Shown here: piece after piece, positions 4,212 through 22,908 of the stretch
Position numbering within the stretch: the stretch's first letter is position 1
How the letters are laid out: each line of letters starts with the position of its first letter
IMG/VR virus record: IMGVR_UViG_2534681993_000012
DNA: 26,398 nt
Direction: 5' to 3' (one strand)
DNA from: a virus
Lineage: Duplodnaviria; Heunggongvirae; Uroviricota; Caudoviricetes
The notes under the pieces: generated by a model
Told to the model about the DNA's origin: nothing
The model's database searches: none
What the model saw: the letters and a program-made list of their open reading frames with translations, nothing else
Position numbers and translations under genes: made by a program

Positions 4212-4418
4212 ATGTGCATGGGTAGCTCACCGTCAGTGCCTGCAACACCAGAAGTTCAGGCAGCACCACAGGAGCAGGATGCCGCCGTTGTTGATGCCCG
4301 CGACGAAGAAACTCGTCGCCGTCGCGCTGCTGCTGGTCGTAGTTCTACGCTGCTTACCGGTTCTCAGGGCGACACATCAACCGCTAATACCAGCGGTAAA
4401 ACGCTGCTTGGTCAGTAA
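4212..4418 (+). CDS. small hypothetical protein (68 aa) preceding portal
   Basis: ATG with GGAG Shine-Dalgarno; the initiation context GGAGTCATTGA(T)ATG is nearly identical to that of the portal gene (GGAGTCATTGA(A)ATG at 4421-4435). Confidence 0.5.
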   Translation: MCMGSSPSVPATPEVQAAPQEQDAAVVDARDEETRRRRAAAGRSSTLLTGSQGDTSTANTSGKTLLGQ

Positions 4419-4432
4419 CCGGAGTCATTGAA

Positions 4433-6112
4433 ATGGCGGAAACAACTAAAGAGCGATTGAACAAACAGTTCGCACAACTTGAAAGCGAGCGTCAGTCGTT
4501 CGAGCCGCACTGGCGCGAGTTGAGTGATTACATCAACCCGCGTGGTTCCCGCTTTCTGACTTCTGAGGTCAACCGTAACGATCGACGCAATACACGCATT
4601 ATTGATTCGACCGGGACTATGGCGGCGCGCACTCTCGCCAGCGGCATGATGTCAGGCATCACAAGCCCCGCGCGTCCGTGGTTTCGCCTGGCTACGCCAG
4701 ATCCTGAAATGATGGATTATGGCCCTGTTAAGTTGTGGCTTGAGGCAGTGCAGAACCGCATGAACGATATGTTCAATAAGTCGAATCTCTATCAGTCGCT
4801 GCCGCAGTTATACGGAAGCCTCGGCACATACAGCACCGGTGCAATGGCGGTGATGGAGGATGACGAGGACATCATTCGTACAATGCCATTCCCGATAGGA
4901 AGTTACTACCTGGCTAACTCACCTCGTGGCAGTGTGGACACCTGTTTTCGCAAGTTCTCTATGACTGTTCGTCAGCTTGTTCAGGAGTTCGGGCTAAATA
5001 ACGTCAGCGAATCCGTAAAAAGCATGTGGGAAAGCGGCACCTACGAGAAGTGGATTGAAGTGATGCATTCGGTTTACCCGAACATTGACCGCGATACATC
5101 GAAGCTGGATAGCAAGAACAAGCCATTCAAATCGGTTTATTACGAGGTTGGTGGCGATAACGACAGGTTGTTGCGTGAGTCCGGATTCGATGAGTTTCCA
5201 ATTATGGCTCCGCGCTGGGAAGTTAACGGCGAAGATGTTTATGGATCATCATGCCCGGGTATGCTGGCGCTTGGACCTGTTAAGGCATTGCAGCTTCTCC
5301 AGAAGCGCAAGTCGCAGTTGATTGATAAAGCCACCAATCCGCCGATGGTTGCTCCGACTTCCCTCAAGAATCAGCGCGCCTCCCTTCTTCCTGGCGACAT
5401 CACGTATATCGATCAGATTACTGGTCAGGATGGCTTCAGGCCTGCTTATCTGGTTAACCCCAGTACAGCAGATTTGGTGGCAGACATTCAGGACACTCGT
5501 CAAATCATTAACAGCGCCTACTTTGTCGATCTGTTCATGATGTTGCAGAACATCAATACCCGCTCGATGCCTGTTGAAGCGGTGATCGAAATGAAAGAAG
5601 AAAAACTTCTGATGTTGGGGCCGGTTCTGGAGCGTCTGAACGACGAATGTCTTAATCCTCTCATTGACCGCGCTTTCTCGATGATGGTGCGTAAAAACAT
5701 GCTGCCGCCACCGCCTGACGCGATGGAAGGCATGCCCCTGAAGGTCGAATACATTTCCGTCATGGCTCAGGCGCAGAAGTCTATCGGCCTGTCCAGTCTG
5801 GCGTCCACGGTTAACTTCATTGGTCAACTTGCGCAAGCGAAACCAGAAGCTCTCGACAAACTCAACGTTGATCAGGCGATCGATGCATTCGCTGATATGT
5901 CCGGAGTGTCTCCAACCGTCATTGTTCCGCAGGAACAGGTTGAGCAGGCTCGCCAGCAACGGGCACAGCAGCAACAGCAGCAACAAATGATGGCGATGGG
6001 GATGGCGGCGGCACAGGGTGCCAAGACGCTAAGCGAAGCTAAAACTTCGGATCCGAGTGTGTTGTCAGCTATGGCGAATGCAGTTAGTGGTCAGGGTGGG
6101 CAATCACAATGA
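4433..6112 (+). CDS. portal (head-to-tail connector) protein
   Basis: 559 aa; position after terminase; C-terminal Gln/Ala/Met-rich tail (QQQQQQQMMAMGMAAAQGAK) of the kind I recall in podovirus connectors; strong Shine-Dalgarno. Confidence 0.8.
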   Translation: MAETTKERLNKQFAQLESERQSFEPHWRELSDYINPRGSRFLTSEVNRNDRRNTRIIDSTGTMAARTLASGMMSGITSPARPWFRLATPDPEMMDYGPVKLWLEAVQNRMNDMFNKSNLYQSLPQLYGSLGTYSTGAMAVMEDDEDIIRTMPFPIGSYYLANSPRGSVDTCFRKFSMTVRQLVQEFGLNNVSESVKSMWESGTYEKWIEVMHSVYPNIDRDTSKLDSKNKPFKSVYYEVGGDNDRLLRESGFDEFPIMAPRWEVNGEDVYGSSCPGMLALGPVKALQLLQKRKSQLIDKATNPPMVAPTSLKNQRASLLPGDITYIDQITGQDGFRPAYLVNPSTADLVADIQDTRQIINSAYFVDLFMMLQNINTRSMPVEAVIEMKEEKLLMLGPVLERLNDECLNPLIDRAFSMMVRKNMLPPPPDAMEGMPLKVEYISVMAQAQKSIGLSSLASTVNFIGQLAQAKPEALDKLNVDQAIDAFADMSGVSPTVIVPQEQVEQARQQRAQQQQQQQMMAMGMAAAQGAKTLSEAKTSDPSVLSAMANAVSGQGGQSQ

Positions 6113-20205: not shown

Positions 20206-20210
20206 GCTAG
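20206..20210. repeat. IS2 target-site duplication (GCTAG), left copy
   Basis: The same 5-mer directly flanks both IS2 ends. Confidence 0.8.
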
Positions 20211-20221
20211 TGGATTTGCCC

Positions 20222-21127
20222 CTATATTTCCAGACACCTGTTATCACTTAACCCATTACTGGCTTGCTGCCGTAGATATTCCCGTGGCGAGCGATAACCC
20301 AGTGCACTATGCGGATGCCATTCGTTATAATGCTCGAACGCCTCTGCAAGGTTCTTTGCTGCCGTTAACCCGTCTGGTTTGGGCATGACACTGATGTAGT
20401 CACGCTTTATCGTTTTCACGAAGCTCTCTGCTATGCCGTTACTCTCCGGACTCCGCACCGCCGTGCTCTTCGGTTCAAGCCCCAACATCCGGGCAAACTG
20501 CCGTGTTTCATTAGCCCGGTAGCATGAACCATTATCCGTCAGCCACTCTACTGGAGACGCCGGAAGCTCGTTGCCGAAGCGGCGTTCCACCGCTCCCAGC
20601 ATGACGTCCTGTACTGTTTCACTGTTGAAGCCGCCCGTAGTGACCGCCCAGTGCAGTGCCTCACGGTCACAGCAGTCCAGCGCGAACGTGACTCGCAGTT
20701 TTTCTCCGTTATCACAGCGGAACTCGAACCCGTCAGAGCACCATCGCTGATTACTTTCTTTCACAGCCACTCTGCCTGTATGTGCCCGTTTCGATGGCGG
20801 TACAGCAGGTTTTCGCTCAAGCAACAGCGCATTCTGGCGCATGATCCGGTAAACACGTTTGGCATTGATCGCAGGCATACCATCAAGTTCTGCCTGTCTG
20901 CGAAGCAGCGCCCATACCCGACGATAACCATACGTGGGCAGCTCTCCGATAACATGGTGTATACGGAGAAGCACATCCGTATCATCAGTGTGACGACTGC
21001 GGCGGCCATCCATCCAGTCATCGGTTCGTCTGAGAATGACGTGCAACTGCGCACGCGACACCCGGAGACAACGGCTGACTAAGCTTACTCCCCATCCCCG
21101 GGCAATAAGGGCGCGTGCGCTATCCAC
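20222..21127 (-). CDS. insD: IS2 transposase OrfB (InsD)
   Basis: 301-aa translation [23 protein letters not shown]... recognised as IS2 InsD. Overlaps insC in the -1 frame with slippery CAAAAAAG at 21127-21134 (programmed frameshift typical of the IS3 family). Confidence 0.9.
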
Positions 21128-21450
21128 TTTTTTGCCCGTCCATATTCAACGGCTTCTTTGAGGAGTTCATTTTCCATCGTTTTCTTGCCGAGCAGGCGCT
21201 GGAGTTCTTTAATCTGCTTCATGGCGGCAGCAAGTTCAGAGGCAGGAACAACCTGTTCTCCGGCGGCGACAGCAGTAAGACTTCCTTCCTGGTATTGCTT
21301 ACGCCAGAGAAATAACTGGCTGGCTGCTACACCATGTTGCCGGGCAACGAGGGAGACCGTCATCCCTGGTTCAAAGCTCTGCTGAACAATTGCGATCTTT
21401 TCCTGTGTGGTACGCCGTCTGCGTTTCTCCGGTCCTAAGACATCAATCAT
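21085..21450 (-). CDS. insC: IS2 OrfA (InsC), HTH protein
   Basis: [25 protein letters not shown]...; ATG 21450 follows GGAGA. The ORF-track extension to 21495 lacks a ribosome-binding site. Confidence 0.85.
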
Positions 21451-21541
21451 CTGCTCTCCAATGACTAGTCTAAAAACTAGTATTAAGACTATCACTTAAA
21501 TAAGTGATACTGGTTGTCTGGAGATTCAGGGGGCCAGTCTA

Positions 21542-21546: not shown

Positions 21547-21800
21547 ATTCTGGAAGACAAAGGGCAATGCTGAAGGTGTGCTCAGCTGATGGTGGATTTT
21601 TTGTTATTGCCGATTCATCTTACAGCAAAGGACCAAAGCTGAGGATTGGTGATCTTGTTGCTTGGTTGCCTGTGAGTTATGCCGAAGAATTAACGGATAA
21701 AATAGAAGATCCTCGCTCCGCTATGGTTGGCTTTATATTGGGAACCATTCATCCTGAACTAACATCTACTGGCTGGAAGGGTAAAGAAAGATTTCGCAAG

Positions 21801-21816
21801 TAGCGTGACATGTCAC
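21801..21816. repeat. 16-bp motif TAGCGTGACATGTCAC (copy 2 of 2)
   Basis: Exact repeat of 444-459; here its first 3 nt are the stop codon of the IS2-disrupted gene and it is followed at once by a terminator. Confidence 0.7.
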
Positions 21817-21841
21817 AGGCCGCTTTCGCGGCCTTGTTTTT
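21817..21841 (+). terminator. intrinsic terminator
   Basis: AGGCCGC-TTTC-GCGGCCT followed by TGTTTTT. Confidence 0.6.
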
Positions 21842-22001
21842 AACGAATGCCACCGCCGCCCGGGCGGGAATCCGCAGAACGCCCACCGCAGCGGGAGCCG
21901 TCAGCGGCAGTATCGCTGTCGTGCTGACAACGACCGGCAAAGGCCTGAGTTGAAGCTACCAGAGACAACAAAACGAACAGTGCAGCAAATGCTTTTTTCA
22001 T
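21840..22001 (-). CDS. small secreted peptide (53-aa precursor; about 31-aa mature, Gly/Arg/Asp/Ser-rich with 2 Cys)
   Basis: ORF track 21840..22073; the internal start MKKAFAALFVLLSLVASTQAFA gives a canonical Sec signal peptide with AFA cleavage motif. GC-rich, unlike its neighbours. Confidence 0.45.
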   Translation of the reverse strand: MKKAFAALFVLLSLVASTQAFAGRCQHDSDTAADGSRCGGRSADSRPGGGGIR

Positions 22002-22014
22002 TGTGACATTTCCA

Positions 22015-22042
22015 TCTATAAGCCACCTCAATGTGGCGTCAA
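22015..22042 (-). promoter_or_regulatory. candidate sigma70 promoter of the small-peptide gene
   Basis: Minus strand: -35 TTGACG (22042-22037), 16-bp spacer, -10 TATAGA (22020-22015). Confidence 0.35.
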
Positions 22043-22082
22043 TGAGTGTAGCACTGACTTTTGTTTCGTCCATAAAAAACTA

Positions 22083-22595
22083 CTATGCAGGCTTTTTGGA
22101 TTTGTACGAATAATCCCACGGATAAACATTTCTACTAAGTGGGGCTGTATTCGTTCGTTCATGAAATAATTTTGTGAAATTCAATACGGAATCCATCCAA
22201 ACTTTTGCGTTAGCTTTGGTGTGTGCGGGCGGGTCCCAATAAGCTAGTAAGGCTGCATCTCTTATTTCATTGACTGCATATATGAGATATGCGTTACTGG
22301 TTGGTTTTGGCCTGTAATTTCCTTGTTCATCAATCAATCCATATGACCACTCATCCCAACACTGTTCAGTACATGAGTATGAATATGATGCATATTCACC
22401 AATATTGACATGAACCTTTCTGAGATGGAAGCCTAATACTTCGTCTGGTCTTTCAAAAAGAGTATCTTTTCCCAGATCAGGATGATGACCATGACGCCAG
22501 TGTTGTTTAAAAGCATCTTTTAGCGAAATCAGAAAGTCATCAGTTTTAAACTCACCAGTAGGTATAACCTTCCCGCTATACTCACTCAAAAACAT
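22083..22595 (-). CDS. uncharacterised protein (170 aa), distal gene of a two-gene operon; His/Cys-rich segments (HWRHGHHP, CTEQCWDEW)
   Basis: ATG 22595 follows GAGGAA; the start overlaps the last 14 nt of the upstream gene (translational coupling). No family recognised by eye. Confidence 0.6.
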   Translation of the reverse strand: MFLSEYSGKVIPTGEFKTDDFLISLKDAFKQHWRHGHHPDLGKDTLFERPDEVLGFHLRKVHVNIGEYASYSYSCTEQCWDEWSYGLIDEQGNYRPKPTSNAYLIYAVNEIRDAALLAYWDPPAHTKANAKVWMDSVLNFTKLFHERTNTAPLSRNVYPWDYSYKSKKPA

Positions 22596-22908
22596 CGAAT
22601 TCCTCTTCCTTCATATGCGTTTCTAATGAGTTAAGCTGGCGGAAAGATATCTCTTTTGATTCTGCAGATGAGAGCTTTTTTATCCGCTTTATATTCTTTG
22701 TGATAGGAATAGACATTGTATGCACATCAGCGGATGCTCTTGGCTTTGTGCTGATAAAAATATGGCGCAATGCCGCATTTTCACTATTGAACGAGCCAAT
22801 AGCTGATTTACGTGCTACAACCTTACCAGTAAAAATACGACTCTTGCTACGCTTTGCATGAGTTCCGCTTCTTACCGGACCTCTCATCACGAATCCAAGT
22901 TTTGTCAT
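22582..22908 (-). CDS. uncharacterised basic protein (108 aa), proximal gene of the two-gene operon
   Basis: ATG 22908 follows GGAGA (7-nt spacer); Lys/Arg-rich N-terminal half, acidic C-terminus; operator dyad 43-57 bp upstream. Confidence 0.6.
   Translation of the reverse strand: MTKLGFVMRGPVRSGTHAKRSKSRIFTGKVVARKSAIGSFNSENAALRHIFISTKPRASADVHTMSIPITKNIKRIKKLSSAESKEISFRQLNSLETHMKEEEFDVFE

Follow-up and report, generated by a model that had tools for sequence, protein, structure and literature searches.

Is the short GC-rich open reading frame (ORF) found on the minus strand of an Escherichia coli prophage a genuine gene, where would its product go, and what could it do there? The prophage is IMG/VR record IMGVR_UViG_2534681993_000012, and the window analysed here is this whole stretch of 26,398 nucleotides. 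It is a phiV10/TL-2011b/epsilon15-like prophage (Uetakevirus), with 96–98% identity over the virion genes, and the ORF, with a BRO-N/Ant gene as its neighbour, belongs to the accessory region that separates the large ejection-protein genes from the tail spike. The frame starts with the ATG at 22001, ends with a TAA stop (21842..21840) and encodes MKKAFAALFVLLSLVASTQAFA, followed after the predicted cleavage point by GRCQHDSDTAADGSRCGGRSADSRPGGGGIR. Our sequence comparisons and structure predictions point to a moron cassette whose product would be exported by the Sec pathway, cleaved, and left in the periplasm as a soluble ligand of the envelope, an explanation to which we give, taken as a whole, a probability of about 0.6. 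That this is a prophage gene annotated as hypothetical, and a typical moron, was already known; what is new here is its membership in a wider family, a corrected regulatory anatomy and an argument against the name 'transmembrane anchored protein' under which its relatives are filed.

The annotation and the distribution of the ORF are consistent with a gene. At the identical E. coli locus, RefSeq, through the Prokaryotic Genome Annotation Pipeline (PGAP), records a 53-amino-acid hypothetical protein (WP_000708858.1), and in TL-2011b the product is annotated as 'putative transmembrane anchored protein' (AEW24557.1). It matches the PHROG 14503 profile over 53 of 53 positions (1–53, E 2.3e-40), a family labelled 'membrane associated protein' in the moron category and whose proteins NCBI calls 'transmembrane anchored protein'; this last name is borne by 57 clusters of close relatives and recurs in UniRef and in phage records. 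The region is present in 538 of 5426 complete E. coli genomes (~10%), Shiga toxin-producing and extraintestinal pathogenic lineages being among the carriers, and 80 IMG/VR viral contigs encode the identical peptide with 0–5 silent nucleotide differences. Orthologs are found in Klebsiella, Citrobacter, Cronobacter, Salmonella, Pectobacterium, Dickeya, Pantoea, Rahnella, Kluyvera and further genera.

The main evidence comes from the pattern of substitutions. Nei-Gojobori counts on 14 orthologs from 14 genera of Enterobacterales gave, for the mature part, a proportion of synonymous differences (pS) of 0.70 and a proportion of nonsynonymous differences (pN) of 0.118, hence a pN/pS of 0.17, and for the signal part a pS of 0.71 and a pN of 0.28. 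Across these genera synonymous sites are saturated, the third codon position being variable in 28 of the 29 mature-part codons, and the mature part is nearly fixed. Because third positions vary while the peptide stays, the 53-codon ORF is, judged by its evolution, a real gene under strong purifying selection and translated in this frame. The original prediction had staked the reality of the peptide on conservation of the frame in related prophages, and the frame is indeed conserved, in the 14 genera and in the 80 viral contigs. The alternative is that the locus holds no gene but a regulatory or terminator region, in which the ORF would be a chance frame. The ORF is short, and GC-rich DNA yields ORFs in several frames, as does this one with a 47-amino-acid ORF on the plus strand (21810..21953), opposite the small ORF; comparable antisense ORFs face high-GC homologs, and the plus-strand ORF is a by-product of the GC-rich sequence. 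However, the substitution pattern already refutes the absence of a gene, the peptide motif is kept from E. coli to cyanobacteria despite quite different nucleotide sequences, and hundreds of protein clusters carry the family, so that the chance of there being no gene is negligible. A 77-codon version of the same frame, starting at an ATG at 22073, is chosen by some annotators and is the basis of PHROG 3117. This start was rejected, as other genera have upstream, in frame, either unrelated sequence or a stop, which suggests that Met-Lys-Lys is the conserved start and that the one used in PHROG 3117 is not.

The gene appears to move together with its flanking signals. Phage matches to the region are confined to window positions ~21795–22079, and in the 80 viral contigs homology ends ~70–80 nucleotides before the ATG and ~30 nucleotides past the stop; the flanks are different in TL-2011b and in ~70 of these 80 contigs. 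Other genes lie upstream of the cassette in TL-2011b, and in other Enterobacterales the ortholog sits in other prophage types, beside lysis or tail genes, the carriers also including Klebsiella, Salmonella, Cronobacter and Pectobacterium prophages. In phiV10, otherwise collinear with the window, only the hairpin that follows the gene and the last seven codons (GGGGIR-stop) are kept before the sequences diverge (positions 2534–2561 of the phiV10 locus L060 against 21840–21862 of the window). By its sequence this remnant is a deletion scar, and because phiV10 retains no other part of the gene, the gene must be dispensable for a viable phage. Such boundaries identify it, as far as sequence can, as a classic moron in the sense summarised in PMC3573123, an independently mobile accessory unit, a conclusion that we regard as solid but ordinary.

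Separate acquisition had originally been proposed on the basis of G+C content. The contrast with the neighbouring genes exists, with 58% in the ORF against 39–43% around it, but it does not carry that conclusion. The signal part has 44% G+C, much as its surroundings do, and the mature part 70%, and because the excess sits mainly in codon positions 1 and 2 (0.74 and 0.77 over the 31 mature codons, with 0.58 in position 3), it is mostly an amino-acid effect, due to Gly, Arg, Ala and Pro codons, and is weak evidence of foreign origin. Separate acquisition itself stands, because of the mosaic boundaries: the flanks of the cassette differ among prophages and the gene is deleted in phiV10.

Predicted export and the mature peptide

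The N-terminus of the protein contains two Lys, a hydrophobic core of 13 residues and the sequence A-F-A ahead of Gly23. Signal peptides were assigned by rule-based inspection (n-region, h-region and residues −3 and −1) of the window protein and of 91 relatives. By these rules the protein has the features of a precursor cut by signal peptidase I, namely a basic n-region, an h-region in the range of 7–15 residues and small uncharged residues at −3 and −1, the last being the (−3,−1) rule of this peptidase. Position −1 is Ala in 89 of the 91 relatives, position −3 is A, S or V in all of them and Gly23 is found in 89, while the remainder of the signal sequence drifts freely; the uncharged stretch ahead of the motif Cys has a median length of 21 residues, c-region included. 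This conservation indicates that the AXA-G site is maintained by selection. Because the h-region is short and the −3/−1 site is conserved while the rest of the N-terminus varies, the N-terminus is most likely a cleaved Sec-type signal rather than a membrane anchor, in agreement with the 53-residue Sec precursor first described. It contains no lipobox ([LVI][ASTVI][GAS]C with Cys at +1), because one residue (N, R, P or S in 90 of the 91 relatives) separates Gly23 from Cys25, the sequence being F-A-G-R-C.

The composition given for the mature part, about 31 residues rich in Gly, Arg, Asp and Ser with two Cys, was also correct (G8 R5 D4 S4 A3 C2 in 31 residues). With a grand average of hydropathy of −1.19, a net charge of ~+1 and an isoelectric point of 8.1, it is devoid of any hydrophobic face. 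Among the 91 small members of the family, columns C25, A32, D34, G35, S36, C38, R41, R46, G48 and G49 are invariant. Given 19 sequences, AlphaFold2 was confident about nothing but the signal helix; with 91 sequences the predicted local distance difference test score rose to 76–83 over residues 21–50, in a model with a helix at residues 2–16, a beta-bridge between residues 31 and 37 that flanks D34-G35, and short helical turns at 39–45.

The ring segment around the Asp-Gly pair resembles the calcium-binding Excalibur motif (PF05901, DxDxDGxxCE), since D30-T-A-A-D34-G-S-R-C38-G shares the D-x-D-x-D-G-x-x-C-E spacing and both are extracytoplasmic and closed by Cys. The peptide differs from Excalibur by an invariant Ala32 at the third ligand position and by Gly39 in place of the final Glu, and searches of Pfam returned no PF05901 match, at E values up to 1 for the window protein and up to 10 for the 91 members. 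A calcium-binding loop of the DxDxDG type was consequently downgraded, on account of the invariant Ala, the predicted hairpin turn and the lack of a Pfam match, and the simpler reading of the model is that D34-G35 may be a plain turn motif at the tip of a beta-hairpin. One larger relative (P0177) has an Excalibur-like stretch, seen by eye, together with the CPCPY form of the domain described below; a Pfam scan of this protein detected no family.

The database name corresponds to a different topology, in which the signal would remain uncleaved and anchor the protein, leaving a 31-residue tail on the periplasmic face of the inner membrane; the protein might then be a regulator similar to MgrB or SafA, binding a membrane sensor or transporter by its periplasmic domain. 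That name is common to the NCBI, UniRef and phage records, AlphaFold2 predicts the helix mentioned above, and some family members (P0074, P0094, P0105) have the motif beside a true membrane helix. However, a hydrophobic core of only 13 residues, an A-x-A/G site kept in 89–91 of the 91 relatives, and a pN of 0.28 in the N-terminus against 0.12 in the mature part make up the pattern of a cleaved signal, and literature searches revealed no experimental basis for the name. An anchored protein is in our opinion unlikely, and the conservation of the cleavage site suggests that the name is misleading.

A membrane-inserted product could also be a type I toxin of the Hok/Gef kind, controlled by an antisense RNA, damaging the membrane and exposing a Cys-containing tail to the periplasm. 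Such toxins resemble the small protein in length and layout, with an N-terminal hydrophobic helix, a polar C-terminal part and two Cys, and a YafO-like toxin gene adjoins the cassette. Against this, Pfam gave no Hok/Gef match, a scan for antisense promoter-like sites was negative, and an Rfam search of the 2-kb surroundings returned nothing relevant. In addition, selection is strongest on the polar tail and not on the hydrophobic part, the cleavage site is conserved, and the cassette occurs independently of the YafO-like gene, all of which renders a toxin of this kind very improbable.

Relatives of the peptide outside phages

The core of the peptide has the consensus G-[NP]-C-x4-[DQ]-x-A-x-D-G-S-R-C-G-x-R-[SA]-A-x-x-R-P-G-G. 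When genomes were scanned with the two peptide stretches that are best conserved, the motif turned up in Mesorhizobium, Rhizobium, Agrobacterium, Bradyrhizobium, Methylobacterium and Devosia, and also in several cyanobacteria, Vibrio, Bacteriovorax and one myxobacterium. A homology search for small proteins, proposed originally as a check, led beyond PHROG 14503 to a large unnamed family: an exhaustive profile search collected 379 clusters at 50% identity (E ≤ 1e-3), and a word-indexed search with the full-length alignment collected 669 clusters at 90% identity, which bear no Pfam domain and no other names than 'transmembrane anchored protein' or 'hypothetical'. No literature was found on the accession, the motif or the database name.

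The motif lies at the very C-terminus in 125 of 178 proteins. Other architectures have it in tandem, behind a membrane helix, or as an ectodomain at the N-terminus, with first a membrane helix and then a cytoplasmic region behind it. Beyond Enterobacterales the genes stand alone. Because the motif occurs alone, at C-termini, as an ectodomain and behind SH3 domains, its sequence contexts identify it as an autonomous extracytoplasmic mini-domain of diderm bacteria, in a broad unnamed family.

Several members depart from the simple layout. In five proteins (P0197, P0152, P0177, P0113 and P0120) the C-terminus carries a four-Cys 'CPCPY' variant (YSGNCPCPYN..NGSRCGGRSAYSRPGG..PLCY), which in two of them (P0197 and P0152) sits behind bacterial SH3 domains; no Pfam model covers this variant, and P0122 gave only a weak match to DUF6719 (E 0.034). 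In proteins of AT-rich organisms (P0074, P0094, P0097, P0119 and P0131) the motif forms the N-terminal ectodomain of single-pass membrane proteins, where it is followed by RNPDTDW, a membrane helix and a cytoplasmic region of ~150 amino acids without a Pfam match, an arrangement that suggests that the module can act as a periplasmic sensing or anchoring head. In Candidatus Pantoea symbiotica (L013), a secreted protein of 122 amino acids (4405–4770, minus strand), encoded directly upstream of the ortholog (5001–5147), clusters with the same family, so that two members are adjacent.

The breadth of the family bears on the antimicrobial or signalling role first considered for the peptide. A released microcin-like antimicrobial, or a signal acting on other cells, would fit a small product with two Cys, a secretion signal and cationic Arg residues. 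However, a Sec signal leads only to the periplasm and is not the double-glycine leader of microcins and bacteriocins, and in the neighbourhoods examined, where the genes are unrelated ones of housekeeping or phage type, no exporter, immunity or receptor gene is close by or conserved. Hydrophobic residues are also all but absent from the mature peptide, its net charge is ~+1, and it hardly varies across phyla, whereas bacteriocins typically diversify fast. An antimicrobial is for these reasons improbable, and no support emerged for a signalling function.

Expression signals and neighbouring genes

The gene had been credited with a promoter of its own, made of TTGACG and TATAGA. Both hexamers are present where they were placed, with a spacer of 16 nucleotides, but the consensus scan does not call them, TATAGA lacking a T at position 6, and they are not conserved: the hexamers aligned to them in 13 other genera are not promoter-like (for example ATAAAG/TCAAAG) and the −10 counterparts, such as TACACA, never end in T. 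Moreover, only 13 nucleotides separate TATAGA from the ATG; transcription from it would give a leader of ~6 nucleotides that starts downstream of the Shine-Dalgarno-like GGAAA. No room would be left for a ribosome-binding site, because GGAAA would precede the transcript start.

A better-conserved candidate −10, TG-TACACT, lies 25 nucleotides upstream of the one proposed earlier. In the alignment of the upstream regions of the 14 genera, the TAnnnT columns are the most conserved, T36, A37 and T41 being at least 90% conserved; E. coli has TACACT with TG ahead of it, Klebsiella and Buttiauxella have TACAAT, Enterobacter has TATGAT and Pectobacterium has TACGCT. With TGGACG as the −35 the candidate scores 8/12 on the consensus. 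Directly upstream of TGGACG, TL-2011b and Klebsiella have the end of a rho-independent terminator, at the border of the cassette, which in these genomes would thus need its own promoter. Conservation of TAnnnT, this upstream terminator and the inclusion of ~78 upstream nucleotides in the mobile unit all speak for a promoter proper to the cassette.

A hairpin follows at the predicted 5' end of the transcript. GC-rich stems of at least 4 bp, 3–7 nucleotides behind TAnnnT, are present in 11 of the 14 orthologs, against 1.7 ± 1.2 in shuffled sequences, of which 0 of 2000 sets reach 11, and the stems covary with both sides changed (GCCAC/GTGGC, GCCGC/GCGGC, CTGC/GCAG, GCCGTC/GATGGC). TG-C-TACACT combined with this hairpin is probably a better fit to a promoter than TTGACG/TATAGA, and the leader of ~38 nucleotides would then begin with a stem-loop. 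5' stem-loops stabilise mRNAs such as that of ompA. At the Shine-Dalgarno-like position the orthologs have GGTAAG, GGAAAG or AAGGA. Between the hairpin and these purines most orthologs (L003–L015) share a (C)TACACA(T)GG box, which in the window (22014–22021) reads TATAGATGG and in which conservation reaches 90% or more at columns A67 and A69; the AUGGA/ACA..GGA context might make it a candidate site of the CsrA or small-RNA type. For the alphaproteobacterial homologs, an EcfG general-stress promoter was considered and rejected, as GGAAC-N14-19-[CG]GTT was found in 0 of 28 upstream regions.

Past the stop, a second hairpin has a good T-run on the plus strand, on which the terminator scan calls it, and a weak one on the strand of the ORF; the minus-strand fold around it has an energy of −17.9 kcal/mol. 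The orthologs, too, have this hairpin or an equivalent one behind the stop, which in several of them is followed by a proper T-run on the strand of the ORF, and in phiV10 it is annotated as a terminator. We infer that it is a terminator shared with the convergent plus-strand gene. The features are listed in Table 1.

Table 1. Position and basis of the features assigned to the small gene and its cassette.
Feature	Position	Strand	Basis
53-codon coding sequence and stop	21840..22001	minus	ORF listing; RefSeq WP_000708858.1; PHROG 14503
Predicted signal peptide, codons 1–22 (MKK + AFAALFVLLSLVA + STQAFA)	21936..22001	minus	read from sequence
Predicted mature 31-residue peptide with Cys25 and Cys38, core C-x4-D-x-A-x-DGSRCG-x-R-SA-xx-RPGG	21843..21935	minus	invariant columns, distant homologs
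Mobile cassette, ~270 bp (promoter region, ORF, hairpin)	21810..22079	minus	phage matches, breakpoints in 80 contigs
Proposed weak −35, TGGACG, 16 nucleotides upstream of TACACT, with a T-run just upstream	22067..22072	minus	candidate
Proposed extended −10, TG-C-TACACT (TACACT 22050..22045)	22045..22053	minus	proposed from 14-genus alignment
Promoter proposed earlier, TTGACG 22042..22037 and TATAGA 22020..22015	22015..22042	minus	hexamers present, not supported
Hairpin GCCAC-ATTGAG-GTGGC at predicted 5' end of transcript	22022..22037	minus	conserved stem
Shine-Dalgarno-like GGAAA, 7 nucleotides ahead of ATG	22009..22013	minus	read from sequence
Hairpin GGCCGC-GAAA-GCGGCC between convergent genes, 5 nucleotides past stop	21817..21834		terminator scan (plus strand), fold

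Two neighbouring elements have histories of their own. A complete insertion sequence IS2 at 20210–21541 (insC-like ORF 21085..21495 and insD-like ORF 20222..21127, minus strand), with a target duplication of 5 bp (GCTAG), interrupts a phrog_9944 gene of 149 amino acids, of which a 78-amino-acid remnant is found at 21567..21803; in a sister strain with the same prophage (L001), the insertion sequence is ~3 kb away, beside the tail-spike gene, and the 149-amino-acid gene is intact. At 22083–22908, on the minus strand, an ORF of 170 amino acids that PGAP annotates as a YafO-family toxin overlaps by 14 nucleotides an upstream ORF of 108 amino acids (phrog_5933). Its match to Pfam YafO (E 9.5e-4) is below the family cut-off. 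The two ORFs may form a putative toxin–antitoxin pair and a second moron; TL-2011b has different genes at the position of this pair.

A proposed periplasmic ligand and known systems

The explanation that we favour, a moron encoding a soluble envelope ligand, would operate as follows. Transcription would start from a weak sigma-70-type promoter (TGGACG, 16 nucleotides, TG-C-TACACT) and yield an mRNA with a short stabilising hairpin at its start and, at its end, the GC-rich hairpin that would also serve the convergent gene. Sec would export the precursor, which would be cut after Ala22, and oxidation by DsbA would close a ring between Cys25 and Cys38, leaving a very hydrophilic peptide of 3.06 kDa, predicted to fold round the Asp-Gly turn as a disulfide-stapled beta-hairpin and to have at the C-terminus an Arg-rich turn that ends in RPGG. 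With low certainty, we propose that this peptide is a soluble periplasmic ligand for an envelope component conserved throughout diderm bacteria, because it is predicted to be exported, is hydrophilic, is almost totally constrained across phyla, occurs alone or appended to other domains and has no partner gene. By binding its target it might alter the envelope of the lysogen, for example for protection or exclusion, and would thus be a lysogenic-conversion factor in the periplasm; action on membranes or on other cells is unlikely.

Several observations weigh against parts of this explanation. Neither promoter candidate reaches the threshold of the consensus scan, and in the window read-through from the YafO-like gene, 81 nucleotides upstream, is possible. 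The U-tract behind the terminal hairpin is poor on the strand of the ORF. The fold and the disulfide are predictions made at moderate confidence, and no PDB fold matching the predicted structure was found. Sequence searches of Pfam, NCBIfam and PDB with the peptide, the 91 relatives and the larger relatives gave no family that covers the motif, the only matches being signal-peptide noise and the SH3 domains of the fusion proteins. Finally, when the flanking ORFs were compared all against all by BLAST and 124 neighbours of the distant homologs were scanned with Pfam, no shared partner emerged, and no phage signature either.

A bolder version of the favoured explanation is that the DGSRCG...RPGG core is an undescribed and near-invariant periplasmic mini-domain, a disulfide-stapled hairpin of ~27 residues, common to proteobacteria, cyanobacteria, myxobacteria and Bdellovibrio-like bacteria, that binds one universal envelope target, for example a cell-wall hydrolase or peptidoglycan, and that temperate enterobacterial phages captured repeatedly as a moron. 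We regard this as speculative; if it were true, the moron would protect or immunise the lysogen in the manner of Ivy or Spackle. From E. coli to cyanobacteria the 27-residue core hardly changes, yet neither a domain model nor a structure covers it. As the peptide is small enough for synthesis, finding its partner is a tractable route to the function of several hundred database families, and an identified partner would also show what prophages gain from carrying the gene.

A more specific form of the same explanation is that the peptide is a periplasmic inhibitor, a role that the original prediction had also envisaged, and that it serves superinfection exclusion or self-protection; the loop closed by its disulfide (C-Q-H-D...) would block either a cell-wall hydrolase or an ejection protein belonging to an incoming phage. 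T4 Spackle blocks the gp5 lysozyme, and Ivy blocks lysozyme and lytic transglycosylases via a CKPHDC loop. The location of the gene, between ejection-protein genes and the tail spike and beside the BRO-N/Ant gene, corresponds to the P22 immI/sieA region, and a small, predicted exported, disulfide-containing peptide in which nearly every residue is constrained is what a tight protein–protein interface would produce. The peptide nevertheless has no similarity to Spackle, Ivy, PliC/MliC or SieA, and His27 is not retained outside Enterobacterales and some Rhizobiales. Moreover, since most family members are solitary chromosomal genes without phage context, exclusion cannot be the ancestral role. 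An inhibitor of this kind is conceivable but doubtful.

How, then, does the small peptide compare with systems already described? MgrB-type regulators and Hok/Gef toxins resemble it in having about 50 residues, an N-terminal hydrophobic segment and a two-Cys periplasmic tail, but they are uncleaved, whereas in the small peptide a short core precedes a conserved signal peptidase site, and there is no homology. From PHROG 14503 nothing separates it, as this is its own family, except that the name of the family implies an anchor, against which the conserved AXA site argues. In organisation it parallels classical morons such as lambda Bor and Lom, phi80 and HK022 Cor, T5 Llp and T4 Spackle, which are likewise short accessory genes in a variable slot and missing from close relatives; regulatory signals of its own and an envelope-targeted product, as these have, are probable for the small gene. 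The peptide is, however, much smaller than these proteins and similar to none of them in sequence or fold; Bor, Cor and Llp have a lipobox that it lacks, and, in contrast with them, its relatives are widespread outside phages.

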